From: a virus
DNA length: 64,000 nucleotides
Strand: one strand, 5' to 3'
IMG/VR virus record: IMGVR_UViG_3300037189_006220
Location: 1-64,000 of that record
Made by a program: the position numbers and the translations under genes. Below are positions 19,520 through 61,683 of this stretch, piece after piece. How positions within the stretch are numbered: the stretch's first letter is position 1; every line of letters starts with the position of its first letter. The notes beneath the pieces are model-generated. The model did not search any database, had not been told where the DNA came from, and was given only the letters and a program-made list of their open reading frames with translations.

Positions 19520-19833
19520 TGTGAATAACTTATCCACATGTGGATAACTTTTGTAGGTAGCCTGTGGATAACTTATACACAGCCTGTGGATAACTTCCCC
19601 GCACTTGTGGATAACTTATCCACAGGTTGTGGATAACTTTTTCAGCAAACTCACAGGAAACTCACAGGAAACTCACAGGAAGTTTTTACGGCAATGCCTG
19701 TGGATAACTTATCCACAGGTTGTGGATAACTTTCATAGGAAACTCTCAGGAAACTCACAGCATTCTTACAGCAAACTCATAGGCGTATTCTCACTAACTA
19801 CCCTGTGGATAACTTACGGCAACCTGTGGATAA
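19520..19833. promoter_or_regulatory. DnaA-box cluster 2 (14 boxes)
   Basis: Repeated TGTGGATAA, TTATCCACA and TTATACACA. Confidence 0.85.
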
Positions 19834-19887
19834 CTTTCTCAGGAAACTCACAGGTTTCTCACAGGGTTCTCACAGGAAACGCATAGG
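19651..19887 (+). repeat. 11-bp-period direct repeats TCACAGG-N4 in three blocks (about 13 units)
   Basis: Units at 19651/62/73; 19733/44/55/66/77; 19837/48/59/70/81. Confidence 0.85.
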
Positions 19888-20208
19888 CGGGTAACCCCGC
19901 AAACAACCCCGCAACCCCTGCCACAGAGCAAAGCCAAAACGCAGTAACAGCTGCTGCTGCGAAAAACGCATTGACGCAAAACGCGTCAAAAACATTCACC
20001 GCATAGCGCGACACGCCGGAAAAACGCCGTTGAGCAAAAAAAGTTTTGCCCTATTTTTCCGCGTAAACAAAGGGAAGTAGCCCCGCACGGCAAAAAACTT
20101 TGCCAAAATGGTTTTGACAAGTCAAAAAGTGCGATATCTTTGTATTTGTCAGCAACCGCAGACAAGCACCACCTAACCAGCACCACCTAGTTTCAGGGAG
20201 AAACGAAA

Positions 20209-20526
20209 ATGACCGCAACGACAATCGCCACCGCCGAAGCAACCGCTAGCACGCTCCGCGCATTCGACTCGTTTATGGAAGCAAAGCGTCTCGCAAAGCA
20301 AGCCGAAGCACTCAAAGCCGAAGCCGAAACCGCGCTCCGCGCTTTTATGGCACAGCACGGCGTGGAAGCAATCACGGTTGAGGGACGCACCGTTGTCACT
20401 CTCGCAAAGCGCAACCGCACCGGAGTAGACACCGCGCTACTCAAGTCAGCATTCCCCGAAGCGTTCGAAGCCACGCAGACCGCAACCGCCTACGACTTCC
20501 TACGCACCGCCGGAGTCACGGAGTAA
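20209..20526 (+). CDS. Hypothetical early protein, paralog of 35030-35332
   Basis: TTGACA at 20114, AGGGAG RBS, downstream hairpin terminator. Confidence 0.8.
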   Translation: MTATTIATAEATASTLRAFDSFMEAKRLAKQAEALKAEAETALRAFMAQHGVEAITVEGRTVVTLAKRNRTGVDTALLKSAFPEAFEATQTATAYDFLRTAGVTE

Positions 20527-20834
20527 CACGCACCAAAGCGAGAGAGTGCCTAGCCCTTAGGGGTTAGGCACTTTTTCGTTTGCCCTAGCGTTTTCGCACT
20601 CACCGCATAACCCCTACCGAAGCATTCACCGCATAGCAAAACGCAGGGCAACCCGTGGACGGCATACATTCACGCAGGACGCACCGTGACCCGTAGGCGG
20701 GCGTATACGGGCGCAGGGATACCTAGACTCACCCGTGACCCGTTAGCGCGTCAGCGTGGCGCACAGCGCGTTAGGCAACCGTGACCCGCAGACACGCACC
20801 CGTAAACACGCACAGCGGGCAGACACGCACACCC

Positions 20835-20900
20835 TGTGGATAACTTATCCACAGCCCCACACCCTGCCTGTGGATAACTTTTGCCCCCGCCTGTGGATAA
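20835..20900. promoter_or_regulatory. DnaA-box cluster 3 (4 boxes)
   Basis: Boxes at 20835, 20845, 20869, 20892. Confidence 0.8.
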
Positions 20901-25206: not shown

Positions 25207-25285
25207 GCAGGAAGCCCCCCGAAAGGGGGGCAACCCCCCTACCGTAGGAATTGACAATCAGGAACAAAGTCGGTAGACTATAAAT

Positions 25286-25353
25286 ACAAGATAACTTTTC
25301 TCCCCCAGAAAAGAAACCCCCGGCACTTCTCCCCCGCCGGGGGTTTTTCTTTT
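25286..25353 (+). ncRNA. Candidate ~65-nt sRNA with two C-rich loops
   Basis: TTGACA(25251)-17-TAGACT promoter, no ORF; hairpins CTTTTCT-CCCCC-AGAAAAG and AAACCCCCGGC-ACTTCTCCCCC-GCCGGGGGTTT plus T-run. Confidence 0.65.
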
Positions 25354-40957: not shown

Positions 40958-41158
40958 CTAGTCGTCCAGTTCGTCGCAGAAACGGAATGTGTTTCCGTCG
41001 CTGTCTGACGTGTACGACTCGGTGGTTTCTGCATACTCAAACTCACCGTGGACTTCGATTTGAGCCTGAGCAAGTTGCTTAGCTTCGTCTTCGTTCTCAG
41101 CCTCGACGGTCACGGTGTGCGTAATCGTCTCTTCGTAGGTAACTTCGTATCGAGCCAT
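40958..41158 (-). CDS. Small acidic protein (VEAENEDEA motif)
   Basis: Cassette architecture. Confidence 0.7.
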   Translation of the reverse strand: MARYEVTYEETITHTVTVEAENEDEAKQLAQAQIEVHGEFEYAETTESYTSDSDGNTFRFCDELDD

Positions 41159-41212
41159 TTTGGTTCCCTTTCGTTGTTGGTAGTTCTAACTTACCGTATC
41201 GGTAAGCCGGTG

Positions 41213-41398
41213 TCAAATCGTACTTGCGATAGCGAGCGAGACAACTTTTCCGCCTCCGTCAATGACGGTAGTGTAGTCGCCTTTCCAAAACTTCTTGCTC
41301 GCCTCGTGAAAGTCTGTTGCCTCCACATTGACCACGCCAATGCTAGGCTTGCCATCTTTGAGCGAGATGCTGGTAGTGGTGATTTGGTAGGTAGCCAT
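41213..41398 (-). CDS. Hypothetical protein
   Basis: Cassette architecture. Confidence 0.65.
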   Translation of the reverse strand: MATYQITTTSISLKDGKPSIGVVNVEATDFHEASKKFWKGDYTTVIDGGGKVVSLAIASTI

Positions 41399-41535
41399 TT
41401 TGATTCCCTTCGTCATTTGGTGGTAGCGGTTGCTACATAACCTACTTTACTGGCGCACGCCACCCTTGTCAAGTTAGAGTTCCAGCCGGGAGCAAACAGG
41501 GGGAATAGGAAGGGTAGCCCCCGGCTGGAAGTTTG

Positions 41536-43359
41536 TTATCGGCGTGAGCCAATCGCGGTCAGAGCGTCCGCAGCTGCCTTGCCGATTGCGTCGGAGGCAC
41601 TCGTTGCCGAGCCTTCCATGCGAACGAACTTGGCGGTCTTGAGTCCGTCGGTAAACCGCTTGCCGAACATCGCGTCCTTGCCCGCTCCAATCCAAAGTAC
41701 CGCCACGCCTGACTGCTCACAACGCTTGAGCCACTTCTGCGCCGCGCGTACCTCGTTGCCACGGTAATAGCCGTCCGAGACGATAACCAAGAGCCTCGCC
41801 CCGGTTCCGTGGAGCAAGTTCATCTGACCGTCGAGTGCCATGAAAGCGTCGTCGAATCGCTCGGTTGCGTCCGGTGCCGAGTAGACGCGAACCTTCTCAA
41901 GGTGCTGACCGGGCTTGAGCGTAGCGAATACGCCCGAGCCGTAGTAGACCATGCTCGCCTTGCCCTGAATCCGTCGGACTGCCTCGGAGAGAATCCATGC
42001 GGCGCTCGCCATCGGTTTCATCGCGGAGTTCATCGAGCCGGAGATATCAACCATAACGCCAACGGTCAGCGTCGGGTCGTCTACGTTCTTGTGCTGTACG
42101 CGCTTGAAAGGCTGTTCGTTGCCGGTCAGCCCGCGAGACTTCAACGCCTCGCCCTGAACCAGCGCACGAGTGCGGAGTCGTCCCGGTGGGATATCGCTAC
42201 CCGAAACCACGCGGTCACGGTCACGGTACTTCGCCTTGTCGAGTGCCTTGCCAATCTTGACTGCCGAGGCTCGCTCGTCTGCCTTGGGCGCACGCTCTTC
42301 GACCAACTCGGAGTAAGTCGTAGCGCACTCGGTTGGGCCAGTCCCGGCACCGAATACTTCGCTCGCCTTTGCCTTAGCCTTGGAACGCTCCTCTGCCTTG
42401 GAGTTGGAAGACTCAACCTGTTCGCGGTAGTCCTCGGTGGTCTGCTGTTGCTCGACATCCATGTTGCCCTCAACCTCTGCGTTCTCAGCAGCATCCTTGA
42501 GTGCCTCCATGAGTGCCTTGGCAAACTTCTGTCCGGGAGTAGGCTCGCCACTCTCGCCCTCGCCAGCCTCGCCTTCGCCACCGCTCTCGCCCTCTTCCTC
42601 GCCAGCCTCTTCTTGAGCCTCAACGATAAGAGACTCCCAGAGTTCAGCCAGTTCGTACATGCGCTCAACGTGAGCCGTAGCGTCCAGAGTCTGGAACTCG
42701 CGCCATACACTGCGGAAGTCCTCGAACTTCTCGGGTGAGAGAACCGAATCCAGAATCGAACGGAAGACTTCAACATCGTCCTCAAGCAGAACGCCAGCGT
42801 CAACGCGAGCGTAGGTCAGTCCGAGAATGTGAGCTGCCTGTCGAACAGTAGACATCTTCGCCAGACCCTTCTCGTCAGTATCTCCGAGAACAATCTCCAG
42901 AGCGCAAGTACGCAGGAACGCCTTGTTGTCCGGGAAGTGCTGAATACCGCGTCGCTCAATGCGCGACTCCTCAAGAAGGTGGAGTGCCTCGAATGCTCGG
43001 GGAGTGAGTCGAGCCGCAGCTGTGGGCAAGTCCCACGTTGAGAACCGAGCGTGCATTGCCTCGTGGAAGATTGCGCCAGTTGCCTTGGGGAACTCGAACT
43101 GGTTGGTGCGCTGACGGAGGTCGCCAACCTGAACCGGGGTAACGTGACCGAAGGCAACAGTAGTGTTTACCTCGACCTGTGCGCTCGCCGGGTTGAAGGA
43201 CGCAGGTGCGCCGGAGGCTTTACTTGCCTCGCTCCCGATGTAAGCGATGATATCAGTGCGCTCTGCCCACTGGTTAACGATTGAACCAATCTGGCTACCA
43301 GTTGCGAGCCAGTCATAATCAGTTGCCGAAATCTCGACGGTAGTTCCGAAGTGCGTCAT
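41536..43359 (-). CDS. HExxH metallopeptidase-like plus VWA domain protein (MoxR partner)
   Basis: FHEAMHARFS, EESRIE, MIDAS DISGSM, VSDG. Confidence 0.9.
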   Translation of the reverse strand: MTHFGTTVEISATDYDWLATGSQIGSIVNQWAERTDIIAYIGSEASKASGAPASFNPASAQVEVNTTVAFGHVTPVQVGDLRQRTNQFEFPKATGAIFHEAMHARFSTWDLPTAAARLTPRAFEALHLLEESRIERRGIQHFPDNKAFLRTCALEIVLGDTDEKGLAKMSTVRQAAHILGLTYARVDAGVLLEDDVEVFRSILDSVLSPEKFEDFRSVWREFQTLDATAHVERMYELAELWESLIVEAQEEAGEEEGESGGEGEAGEGESGEPTPGQKFAKALMEALKDAAENAEVEGNMDVEQQQTTEDYREQVESSNSKAEERSKAKAKASEVFGAGTGPTECATTYSELVEERAPKADERASAVKIGKALDKAKYRDRDRVVSGSDIPPGRLRTRALVQGEALKSRGLTGNEQPFKRVQHKNVDDPTLTVGVMVDISGSMNSAMKPMASAAWILSEAVRRIQGKASMVYYGSGVFATLKPGQHLEKVRVYSAPDATERFDDAFMALDGQMNLLHGTGARLLVIVSDGYYRGNEVRAAQKWLKRCEQSGVAVLWIGAGKDAMFGKRFTDGLKTAKFVRMEGSATSASDAIGKAAADALTAIGSRR

Positions 43360-43492
43360 TTTGGTTTCCTATTCCCTTGTTTGACTTTGTATCTACAACT
43401 TACACCCTGCGAGCGCAAGTTGTCAAATCGTCGTTTAGAAAAGTGGGTGCCGGGGAAACGACGAAGAAAACCCGGCACCCGATTCCGGCGAA

Positions 43493-44533
43493 TTAGATTC
43501 GAGCCGGAAGTGCGCTCTCACCGTAGGCACGAGAGAAAACGTCCTGAACAATTGGACGGTCAATCTCGGGTGCTACTGCGAGAAGATTGGCGATTGCGAA
43601 CTTAGTACCGTAGAGGCTCTCGGTCTTCTTGAAGGCGAGAAGTTCACGGAACTGCGGTGCCCAACTTACCTCGTCAGAGGCTTGTTTCTTGGCGAGGTTC
43701 TGCGCGGCGGTTACTGCTTGAGTTGGTACTCCCAACTTACGAGCGAGCGACCAGTCAGTCGTCATTTCAACCTGCAAGGTGAAACGCGAGAGAAGAGCCT
43801 CGGACAAGCGCACGCCGGGTGCGTTCGGGTTGGTCGCGCCGACGACGTAGAAACCGTCCTTCGCCTTGACCACGCCACGCTCCGGGTTCGCCGTCACGTT
43901 GTACTCTTTGCGTCCGTCCATAAGACCGTACACAATCGAGAGAACCTTGGGGTCAATCAGACCGACCTCATCGATGAGCAGTGGGGCACCAGCCTCAGCT
44001 GCTTTGATAAGAGGTCCGTCCTGCCAAGACCAGTCGCCACCCTCGGTGCGAACGTAGCCACCAACAAGGTCAGCAACTTCGGTATCGCCCGAGCCAAGAA
44101 CCGTAAACAGTTCTTCGCCAAAAGCAGCCTCGACCAGAGCAGTCTTACCGCAACCGGGTGCGCCGTACAGCAGTACGAACAGCCCCTCGTTACGAGCAGT
44201 CTTGAGAACCGAGACATCCTCGATGTCAGTCCACTTCCGGGTGTAGTAGTAGTCACCATTGGGACGCAGGTACTTGTCCTTGGTCTCGCCAGTGTTAGCC
44301 ACGCCAGTCACAGCAGGAGCCTCCACAGTTCCAGAAGTCGAACGAGTGCGTGCAACGCTACCCTTGTTTGCGTACTCATTAAGGATAGCAGTTACGCCAA
44401 CCGAAGACTGCAACATGGTTGCCCCGAGCAGTGTAGTGAGACCGGGGAACAGGTGTTCCACGTTTGGTTCTTGCGTGACCTTGCGAGCCATGTCTGCGCG
44501 AAGGATTTCGCGATTAACAATTGTGTGTGTCAT
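43493..44533 (-). CDS. MoxR-family AAA+ ATPase
   Basis: GAPGCGKT, WQDGPL, LLIDE, ATNP, ALLSRF. Confidence 0.9.
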   Translation of the reverse strand: MTHTIVNREILRADMARKVTQEPNVEHLFPGLTTLLGATMLQSSVGVTAILNEYANKGSVARTRSTSGTVEAPAVTGVANTGETKDKYLRPNGDYYYTRKWTDIEDVSVLKTARNEGLFVLLYGAPGCGKTALVEAAFGEELFTVLGSGDTEVADLVGGYVRTEGGDWSWQDGPLIKAAEAGAPLLIDEVGLIDPKVLSIVYGLMDGRKEYNVTANPERGVVKAKDGFYVVGATNPNAPGVRLSEALLSRFTLQVEMTTDWSLARKLGVPTQAVTAAQNLAKKQASDEVSWAPQFRELLAFKKTESLYGTKFAIANLLAVAPEIDRPIVQDVFSRAYGESALPARI

Positions 44534-44577
44534 TTCTTGTCCTTTGATTTCGTCGTTTAGTTAACGCTGTTGCGTTA

Positions 44578-45072
44578 CTAGAGAGTGTACCCTGCTGGTG
44601 CAGGAGTTGTCAAACTGACCGGCTCATTGAAGAGCGAGTCAGTGAATCCTCCCTCTTTACGAGCAACCAGTACTCGGCGGAGCAAAGCGTTCGGAGTCTT
44701 GGTGTCCGCGATGTCCATGAGGTCGTCAGTGGTCATTTCAACCATGAGCGGAGTCTTGTACATCAACCACTCGCCAGCTGCATAGCCGGAGAGGAACGAG
44801 GCGATTTCTCGAACCAGTGGTGCAGCGAGGTCAACAGCAACCTCGTAGTTCATCTCTGGCTCCATGATTGGGTCAGCCTTGGAACTGTAGAAACGCCATG
44901 AGCGACGCTGAACAGTGGGGTCGATGTTACGAGTGAGCAGTACCATTTTCTGGCGCATGCCAGTAATCGGGTTCATCATCGGAGGGATGACGAGTACCTG
45001 TGACGTGTCGCGCCCACGGCGCATTTCCATGTACAGGGCATTGCCTACAATTTTCTTTGCCATGAGTGGCAT
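44578..45072 (-). CDS. Hypothetical protein
   Basis: 164 aa with the conserved leader motif. Confidence 0.7.
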   Translation of the reverse strand: MPLMAKKIVGNALYMEMRRGRDTSQVLVIPPMMNPITGMRQKMVLLTRNIDPTVQRRSWRFYSSKADPIMEPEMNYEVAVDLAAPLVREIASFLSGYAAGEWLMYKTPLMVEMTTDDLMDIADTKTPNALLRRVLVARKEGGFTDSLFNEPVSLTTPAPAGYTL

Positions 45073-61347: not shown

Positions 61348-61683
61348 AAATGTGAAAACGCAAGTTTTCCGACATGAGTAATTTCGCTACCTACTCACAT
61401 AAAATCGCCATCCCCCTCCATCTGGTTGAGTACCACTCCTAGAATATGTGAGGGGGATGGTGTTTTCTTGACAAAAAATATGTCATGTCTTTTTAAGTTA
61501 TTTAACATATTTATTCTCACTAAGCTTAATGAGAATAAGCTGACAATAAATAATTATTATATAAGTTTTAGTGATTGTCTCGGTCTGTTGAGCAGCTCAG
61601 AATTTGCTAAAATAGAAGAACAAACAATCCCCCTCTTGACCAAGAAATTGGTCATTTTTCTTCTGCCCTGAAAGGTCACAAAC

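Follow-up and report, generated by a model that had tools for sequence, protein, structure and literature searches.

Co-evolving complementarity between 3' hairpin loops and leaders in a phage VWA gene and its ATPase partner points to possible gene-specific repression of translation

Why would a phage gene carry, immediately behind its stop codon, a hairpin whose large loop is complementary to the ribosome-binding site of the same gene 1.9 kb upstream? We addressed this question for the gene of a putative VWA-domain protein in the IMG/VR virus record IMGVR_UViG_3300037189_006220, a record of 120.5 kb with terminal repeats, of which the window analyzed here is the initial 64 kb (64,000 nucleotides (nt)). 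The minus strand in this region is organized as a series of small units, each with a separate promoter, and the VWA gene forms a classic pair with a neighboring ATPase gene. A sequence-only reading of the window had claimed that the loop pairs with the leader over 11+6 bp and covers the Shine-Dalgarno (SD) sequence, that this resembles the fold-back of hok mRNA, and that completed mRNAs thereby silence themselves so that translation is only co-transcriptional. What the analysis established is that loop and leader are complementary, where the match lies, that it is specific to each gene and that its two halves have co-evolved. The elements of the VWA gene are as follows.

41536..43359, minus strand: gene of the putative VWA-domain (CobT-like) protein, 607 amino acids (aa), from the open reading frame (ORF) list; the putative domain is C-terminal
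41480..41530, minus strand: VWA 3' stem-loop, beginning 5 nt past the stop, with a G+C-rich stem of 11-14 bp and an open loop of 23-29 nt
41493..41511, minus strand: anti-leader segment of the VWA loop, UUCCUAUUCCC (41511-41501)-CC-UGUUUG (41498-41493)
43366..43383, minus strand: VWA leader arm, CAAACA (43383-43378)-A-GGGAAUAGGAA (43376-43366), which takes in the SD-like AGGAA and stops 6 nt short of the AUG

The VWA gene begins with the AUG at 43359, separated from GGGAAUAGGAA by ACCAAA, and ends with TAA at 41538-41536. The stem of the hairpin behind it is perfect over 11 bp (41530-41520 with 41490-41480) and extends to 14 bp if one mismatch is allowed, leaving a loop of 29 nt or, with the longer stem, 23 nt; the minimum free energy of the hairpin is -28.4 kcal/mol. 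The claimed match between this loop and the leader proved exact: 11+6 bp flank a 1x2 internal loop, and the SD-like AGGAA is covered. In the local context, the predicted mean unpaired probability is 0.92 for the loop segment and 0.72 for the leader arm. The leader on its own is nearly unstructured (-3.7 kcal/mol), and the predicted energy of the loop-leader duplex is -24.1 kcal/mol. An antisense ORF that would be served by the SD-like complement in the loop was also considered and was rejected, as no plus-strand start codon lies within ~20 nt.

Within the 64-kb window, the exact 11-mer occurs at these two sites only, and the 18-mer, with up to 3 mismatches, has 3 matches compared with 0.04 expected. 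Dinucleotide-shuffled VWA loops gave duplex energies of -14.5 +/- 2.5 kcal/mol, with 3 of 1000 reaching -24.1 kcal/mol. By our own arithmetic, an exact 11-nt inverted repeat anywhere in 2.3 kb is expected ~0.6 times by chance, and therefore the weight lies on the position of the match (loop versus leader) and on its conservation rather than on the match itself. When genes of the 120.5-kb genome were ranked by the complement between their own leader and tail, the VWA and ATPase genes came second and third among 170 gene calls, behind a doubtful ORF on a low-complexity hairpin; these calls are crude (starts and some ORFs are wrong) and were used for ranking only. Among 19 large-loop hairpins, those of the VWA and ATPase genes were the only ones whose best upstream match fell at the leader of the gene just ended. 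Ranking the loop-duplex energy along the entire minus strand was uninformative, with G+C-rich windows topping the list. Taken on its own, the in-window match of the VWA loop and leader is suggestive, not decisive.

The VWA protein has ~2000 homologues, and the question of conservation could be put to them. The closest named record, Actinomycetia phage DSL-LC01 (47% aa identity; listed as metagenome-assembled), is laid out in the same way but uses another word of 12-13 nt, its leader carrying GGACAAGTAAAC and its loop GTTTACTTGTCC. Whereas a scan of viral contigs with the single VWA protein returned nothing, a scan based on an alignment of 38 VWA homologues retrieved 80 IMG/VR loci and 80 metagenome loci. 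The combined set comprised 162 loci, 17 of which were left out for want of an ORF longer than 1400 nt, a recognizable start motif or a sufficiently long flank, leaving 145 usable and 99 non-redundant loci. In most of them a strong stem lies 3-11 nt past the stop with a large loop inside, and this loop carries an exact 8-14 nt complement to the leader of its own gene, usually with its beginning at -13 to -20 relative to the AUG. The words themselves differ from locus to locus (for example GACGGAAGGA, GAAAGGACAA, GATAGTAAGG, AAGAATAGAA, GAGAGGAA, GGAGAAGA and CAAGAAAGG), and two-part words like that of the window, made of an SD segment and a segment further upstream, are found in locus L022 and in the group of L021, L049, L032, L075 and L082. 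The anti-leader lies inside the loop in at least 41 of 61 loci, a lower bound, the parser having mis-set the loop borders in some loci. The 5' untranslated regions (UTRs) are 20-45 nt long, and the paired segment begins a predicted 1-30 nt from the 5' end.

The match between leader and tail is a property of each locus and not of the set as a whole. For 61 non-redundant IMG/VR loci plus the window, the mean exact complement was 9.03 nt for a leader with its own tail, compared with 6.37 nt for cross-pairings between loci and 5.50 nt for shuffled tails, and none of 5000 permutations reached the observed mean. Similarly, an own complement of at least 8 nt was present in 74 of the 99 non-redundant loci as against 291 of 1469 cross-pairings (20%), and one of at least 10 nt in 42 of 99 as against 117 of 1469. 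The paired words comprise 44 distinct sequences that fall into 15 classes without any common 7-mer. On a tree of the VWA proteins (FastTree), the 74 loci with a matching pair account for at least 20 changes of word class, and the presence or absence of a matching pair changed at least 10 times among the 99. A mismatch-tolerant duplex search placed the pairs mainly at -17 to -6 from the AUG, with three to four Watson-Crick pair types at nearly each position; 34 of 60 own pairs, compared with 78 of 708 cross pairs, had a duplex score of at least 9.5.

The ATPase gene, which lies upstream of the VWA gene in 77 of 82 loci examined, has a leader-tail pair of its own.

43493..44533, minus strand: gene of the AAA_5 (MoxR/CobS-like) ATPase, 346 aa, partner of the VWA gene (Pfam AAA_5, 2.9e-20)
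43445..43480, minus strand: ATPase 3' stem-loop with a 10-bp stem and a 16-nt loop, in which UUCGUCGUUU at 43465-43456 complements the gene's own leader
44549..44558, minus strand: ATPase leader arm, AAACGACGAA, at -25 to -16 relative to the AUG at 44533

The predicted duplex of this loop and leader has an energy of -13.1 kcal/mol, and the loop segment has a predicted unpaired probability of 0.94. The ATPase genes of relatives likewise match their own leader and tail with other words, such as GGAAACGACGAA in L003, CACCCAATG, which spans the start codon in L005, L007 and L023, and CACCTACA or CAACCTAC, which lie upstream of the SD in L034, L051, L056 and L063. Because each phage thus offers two leaders and two tails, specificity could be compared within a single phage, for which 56 loci with all four pieces readable were used. 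In 45 of 56 loci the VWA tail fitted its own leader better than that of the ATPase gene (4 ties, 7 worse), and in 45 of 56 the VWA leader likewise fitted the tail of its own gene better than the ATPase tail (5 ties, 6 worse); the corresponding counts for the ATPase gene were 36 of 56 and 39 of 56. On the strength of this covariation (own matches exceeding cross matches, at least 20 changes of word class, and a separate pair in the ATPase gene), the claim that loop and leader pair with each other appears strongly supported. The separate pair of the VWA gene as the ATPase's partner, the within-phage specificity test and the tree-based minimum of word changes are new here.

The ATPase tails show further arrangements. 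In seven loci (L021, L026, L032, L039, L043, L044 and L067) the ATPase stop is followed directly by an unstructured anti-SD matching the SD of that gene, often with a conserved CCTAGAT behind it, before the hairpin; judged from these sequences, it would be a second way to place an anti-leader. In L035, L040 and L050 the VWA gene is without an anti-leader hairpin, and the ATPase tail has two hairpins, both with loops TTCGTCGTTT, whose match extends over 9-11 nt with the ATPase leader and over 8 nt with the VWA leader. In the window, a copy of the ATPase leader word, AAACGACGA, lies at 43428-43436 (minus strand), just behind the ATPase hairpin, and could pair with the ATPase loop over 9 bp, as an H-type pseudoknot or as a local decoy in read-through transcripts; a similar copy, GAAACGAC, lies downstream of the ATPase hairpin in L003.

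Both genes appear to be bounded by promoters of their own.

44584..44613, minus strand: promoter of the ATPase unit, TTGACA-18-TACACT, from the promoter scan
43397..43426, minus strand: putative promoter of the VWA unit, TTGACA (43426-43421), an 18-nt spacer and TAAGTT (43402-43397), read by eye
41444..41472, minus strand: promoter of the unit after VWA, TTGACA-17-TAAAGT, from the promoter scan, 8 nt behind the VWA hairpin

The putative VWA promoter predicts a 5' UTR of ~31 nt beginning near 43390, and the same TTGACA-N18-TAAGTT also precedes the gene starting at 41158. Because the next promoter lies only 8 nt behind the VWA hairpin, this hairpin closes the VWA unit.

What might such a pair do? 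In the reading that we favor, to which we assign a probability of about 0.6, gene-specific pairing of 3' UTR and 5' UTR in cis hides the ribosome-binding site and represses translation of the gene's own message. The VWA gene would be a self-contained unit of promoter, short unstructured leader, ORF and 3' hairpin, as would the ATPase gene, and because the leader is almost unstructured its default state would be "on". The strong stem would keep open a large pyrimidine-rich loop that is antisense to the gene's own SD region and to flanking bases of the leader. When transcription has produced the 3' end, the loop would base-pair with the leader on its own mRNA, in competition with the tail of the 16S rRNA for access to the ribosome-binding site, resulting in less initiation; a loop-leader duplex of this length may also invite cleavage. 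The outcome would be a capped, gene-specific yield of protein per transcript for the ATPase/VWA pair. Pairing in vivo, repression by the pairing and action in cis are what we infer from the comparison. The further claim that translation is only co-transcriptional and the completed mRNA silent fits the anatomy and would be a fair corollary of action in cis. Carried to its end, this would make the ATPase and VWA mRNAs of this lake-phage lineage self-closing, translatable only during their synthesis and shut when the 3' loop captures the leader, an extension that we regard as tentative and rather doubtful; if it is true, the amount of protein made from each transcript would be set by the time taken to transcribe it and not by mRNA lifetime.

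To our knowledge, end-to-end base pairing in bacterial mRNAs is represented by only a few single cases (icaR, hbs and hok). The full-length hok mRNA, of the hok/sok system of plasmid R1, is held translationally inert by pairing between its 3' and 5' ends; it encodes a type I toxin, becomes active through slow trimming of the 3' end and is under the control of the antisense RNA Sok. The comparison with hok, drawn by the sequence-only reading, holds as an analogy, but the toxin-antitoxin context does not carry over: the phage gene encodes a protein of 607 aa with an ATPase partner, its anti-leader is shielded within a strong stem, and no antisense partner is evident, positions 41000-45000 giving no match to any Rfam family, antisense RNAs included, on either strand (E<=1).

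The phage unit resembles icaR of Staphylococcus aureus in that an anti-SD motif in the 3' UTR is complementary to the SD region of its own mRNA; the icaR motif pairs with the SD, blocks formation of the initiation complex and makes a substrate for RNase III (PMC3868564). The icaR gene is a bacterial regulator gene whose mRNA has a 3' UTR of more than 100 nt with a UCCCCUG motif, and it is without sequence homology to the phage unit, in which, by contrast, the anti-leader sits in a hairpin loop 5 nt past the stop, extends over 11+6 nt, has gene-specific flanks and recurs in two adjacent genes. The nature of the support also differs, being experimental for icaR and covariation over ~100 loci for the phage. 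In hbs of Bacillus subtilis, a 14-bp contact between 5' and 3' UTR modulates cleavage by RNase Y in the leader (PMC5737220) and, unlike the phage pairs, is not centered on the SD. Also in B. subtilis, anti-SD-like 8-mers placed hundreds of nucleotides downstream pair with the ribosome-binding site, which inhibits initiation and favors decay of the mRNA (Gill et al. 2025 preprint, PMC12697547). Those sequences are synthetic substitutions, and sequences of this kind are depleted in natural genes, whereas the phage sequence is natural, conserved and co-evolving with the leader, which implies selection for it. A literature search, with supplements and subscription journals outside its scope, found no description of such loops for phage MoxR/CobS/VWA genes.

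These comparisons bear on why the pairs matter. The ~100 natural variants in which tail and leader change together are evolutionary evidence that the contacts are selected, and amount to natural compensatory mutants. Distant anti-SD sequences repress and are generally avoided, yet this phage keeps one in each member of its chaperone-like ATPase/VWA pair, and the dose of that pair presumably must stay low or balanced. The layout of promoter, leader, ORF and anti-leader hairpin is, in addition, a simple and portable one for self-limiting expression cassettes.

The same complementarity data are compatible with action in trans, in which a stable G+C-rich 3' fragment would outlive the mRNA, accumulate and pair with the leaders of new copies, providing a delayed gene-specific feedback or timer. 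The strong stem (-28.4 kcal/mol) would be expected to block 3' exonucleases, and in L035, L040 and L050 the two loops of the ATPase tail have an 8-nt match to the VWA leader as well. Moreover, an ORF-less unit elsewhere in the window (25251-25353) contains two complements of the ribosome site GGGAGAA, and trans-acting anti-SD RNAs therefore look plausible in this phage. However, every hairpin is specific to the gene that it follows and in most loci lies 3-11 nt past that gene's own stop, a placement for which a trans regulator would have no need, and pairing in cis would gain from local concentration; we consider the timer unlikely.

Less probable still is that end-to-end pairing protects or organizes the mRNA, as in hbs, by masking the 5' end from 5'-dependent RNases or by bringing terminating ribosomes near the start, with no net repression. 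The hbs contact itself is a precedent, and the paired segment is predicted to begin close to the 5' end, within 1-30 nt of it, but the pairs are centered on the SD (-17 to -6) and in some ATPase loci cover the start codon, so that initiation should be blocked, as it is for icaR and for the distant anti-SD 8-mers. We give very little credence to the view that there is no RNA contact at all, the match reflecting either a chance fit of purine-rich leaders to pyrimidine-rich loops or a feature of the DNA, such as paired protein-binding or recombination sites at gene ends. Consistent with that view, 20% of cross-pairings reach 8 nt and a comparison of G:U with A:C mismatches gave no RNA-strand signature. 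Against it stand the 5000 permutations, none of which reached the observed mean, and the at least 20 changes of word class with complementarity kept. For a DNA feature, two word pairs per phage would require two co-evolving DNA-binding specificities, and one arm always lies in a local hairpin loop and the other on the SD, both of which are RNA-level features.

Repression in cis by pairing of the 3' loop with the leader has itself to be set against several observations. A match of at least 8 nt is absent from 25 of the 99 loci, including several of the nearest relatives of the window (L090, L092, L093, L096 and L097). The feature is also absent from seven of seven cultured relatives checked, namely at the VWA homologue of Microbacterium phages Pumpernickel and A3Wally and Gordonia phage GodonK, at the ATPase of Gordonia phage Sixama, and at cobS of cyanophages Syn9, S-PM2 and P-SSM4, where the next gene follows directly. 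With leaders rich in purines and loops rich in pyrimidines, matches by chance become more frequent, as seen in the 20% of cross-pairings noted above. Neither the VWA nor the ATPase hairpin was terminator-like in the scan, the VWA loop measuring 23-29 nt with no T run behind it; of the hallmarks of an intrinsic terminator, the VWA hairpin has the G+C-rich stem and lacks the short loop and the U tract. Among homologous hairpins, 4 of 41 have more than 3 U in the following 8 nt and 37 of 41 have 3 or fewer, and with long loops and no U tract the 3' end of the mRNA is uncertain. At the other end of the unit, the consensus promoter scan made no call at the VWA promoter, because its -10 hexamer matches at only 3 of 6 positions.

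Further points of this kind concern the pairing as such. A 17-bp helix within a closed 29-nt loop is topologically strained and beyond standard folding; the strain may be lessened by the closeness of the leader arm to the predicted 5' end. RNAcofold of leader and hairpin gained merely -1.2 kcal/mol over the monomers, because the loop-leader contact is a pseudoknot, which the program cannot represent; it was dropped as a test and replaced by the duplex energy computed on the loop alone. G:U and A:C mismatches numbered 2 and 4 for VWA and 2 and 17 for the ATPase, a test of low power because the mismatches lie at duplex edges and composition favors A:C, and one that we weighed as uninformative rather than contrary.

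In two of the cultured relatives, Pumpernickel (L083) and A3Wally (L084), a promoter-like sequence (TTGACA-17-TAGGAT and TTGACA-17-TAGACT, respectively) lies 6 nt before the ATG of the VWA homologue. With the -10 hexamer in this position, both homologues look leaderless, and their 3' hairpin loops contain no complement of the start region (longest common substring 5-6).

The two proteins were also compared with known families. The VWA protein matches Pfam VWA_CoxE with E=0.00096 and 19.1 bits, under the gathering cut-off of 26.4, and 26 of the 38 aligned relatives match this family at E<=0.01; the DxSxS motif (D438, S440 and S442) of the metal ion-dependent adhesion site (MIDAS) is invariant across all 38. 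The homologue in the closest named record is annotated as "cobalamin biosynthesis protein". Searches of NCBIfam and PHROGs gave no match to the VWA protein, and a sequence search found no relative in the PDB. The ATPase matches PHROGs families phrog_16448 (ATPase, 3.4e-56) and phrog_249 ("porphyrin biosynthesis", 3.9e-25). At the DNA level, a search for near-identical sequences in a phage collection returned no match to the window.

Other features of the window were observed alongside. The ORF-less unit at 25251-25353 (plus strand) consists of a TTGACA promoter followed by ~65 nt in which TTCTCCCC occurs twice, once within a U-tract terminator's loop. These copies are the complement of the ribosome site GGGAGAA, which is used by six plus-strand genes: GGGAGAA-N3-9-ATG occurs 7 times compared with 0.74 expected, and 6 of the 7 occurrences are on the plus strand at 19-24.5 kb. 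By its sequence, the unit is a candidate trans-acting anti-SD small RNA. The hairpin listing also revealed dense clusters of TTATCCACA, which we take to be the DnaA-box consensus, at ~19530-20900, with many inverted pairs. Finally, the hairpin at 61408-61460 has a 31-nt loop that is complementary (score 16.8, G:U allowed) to a stretch ~5.6 kb further on, beyond the window, which looks like part of a tRNA gene.

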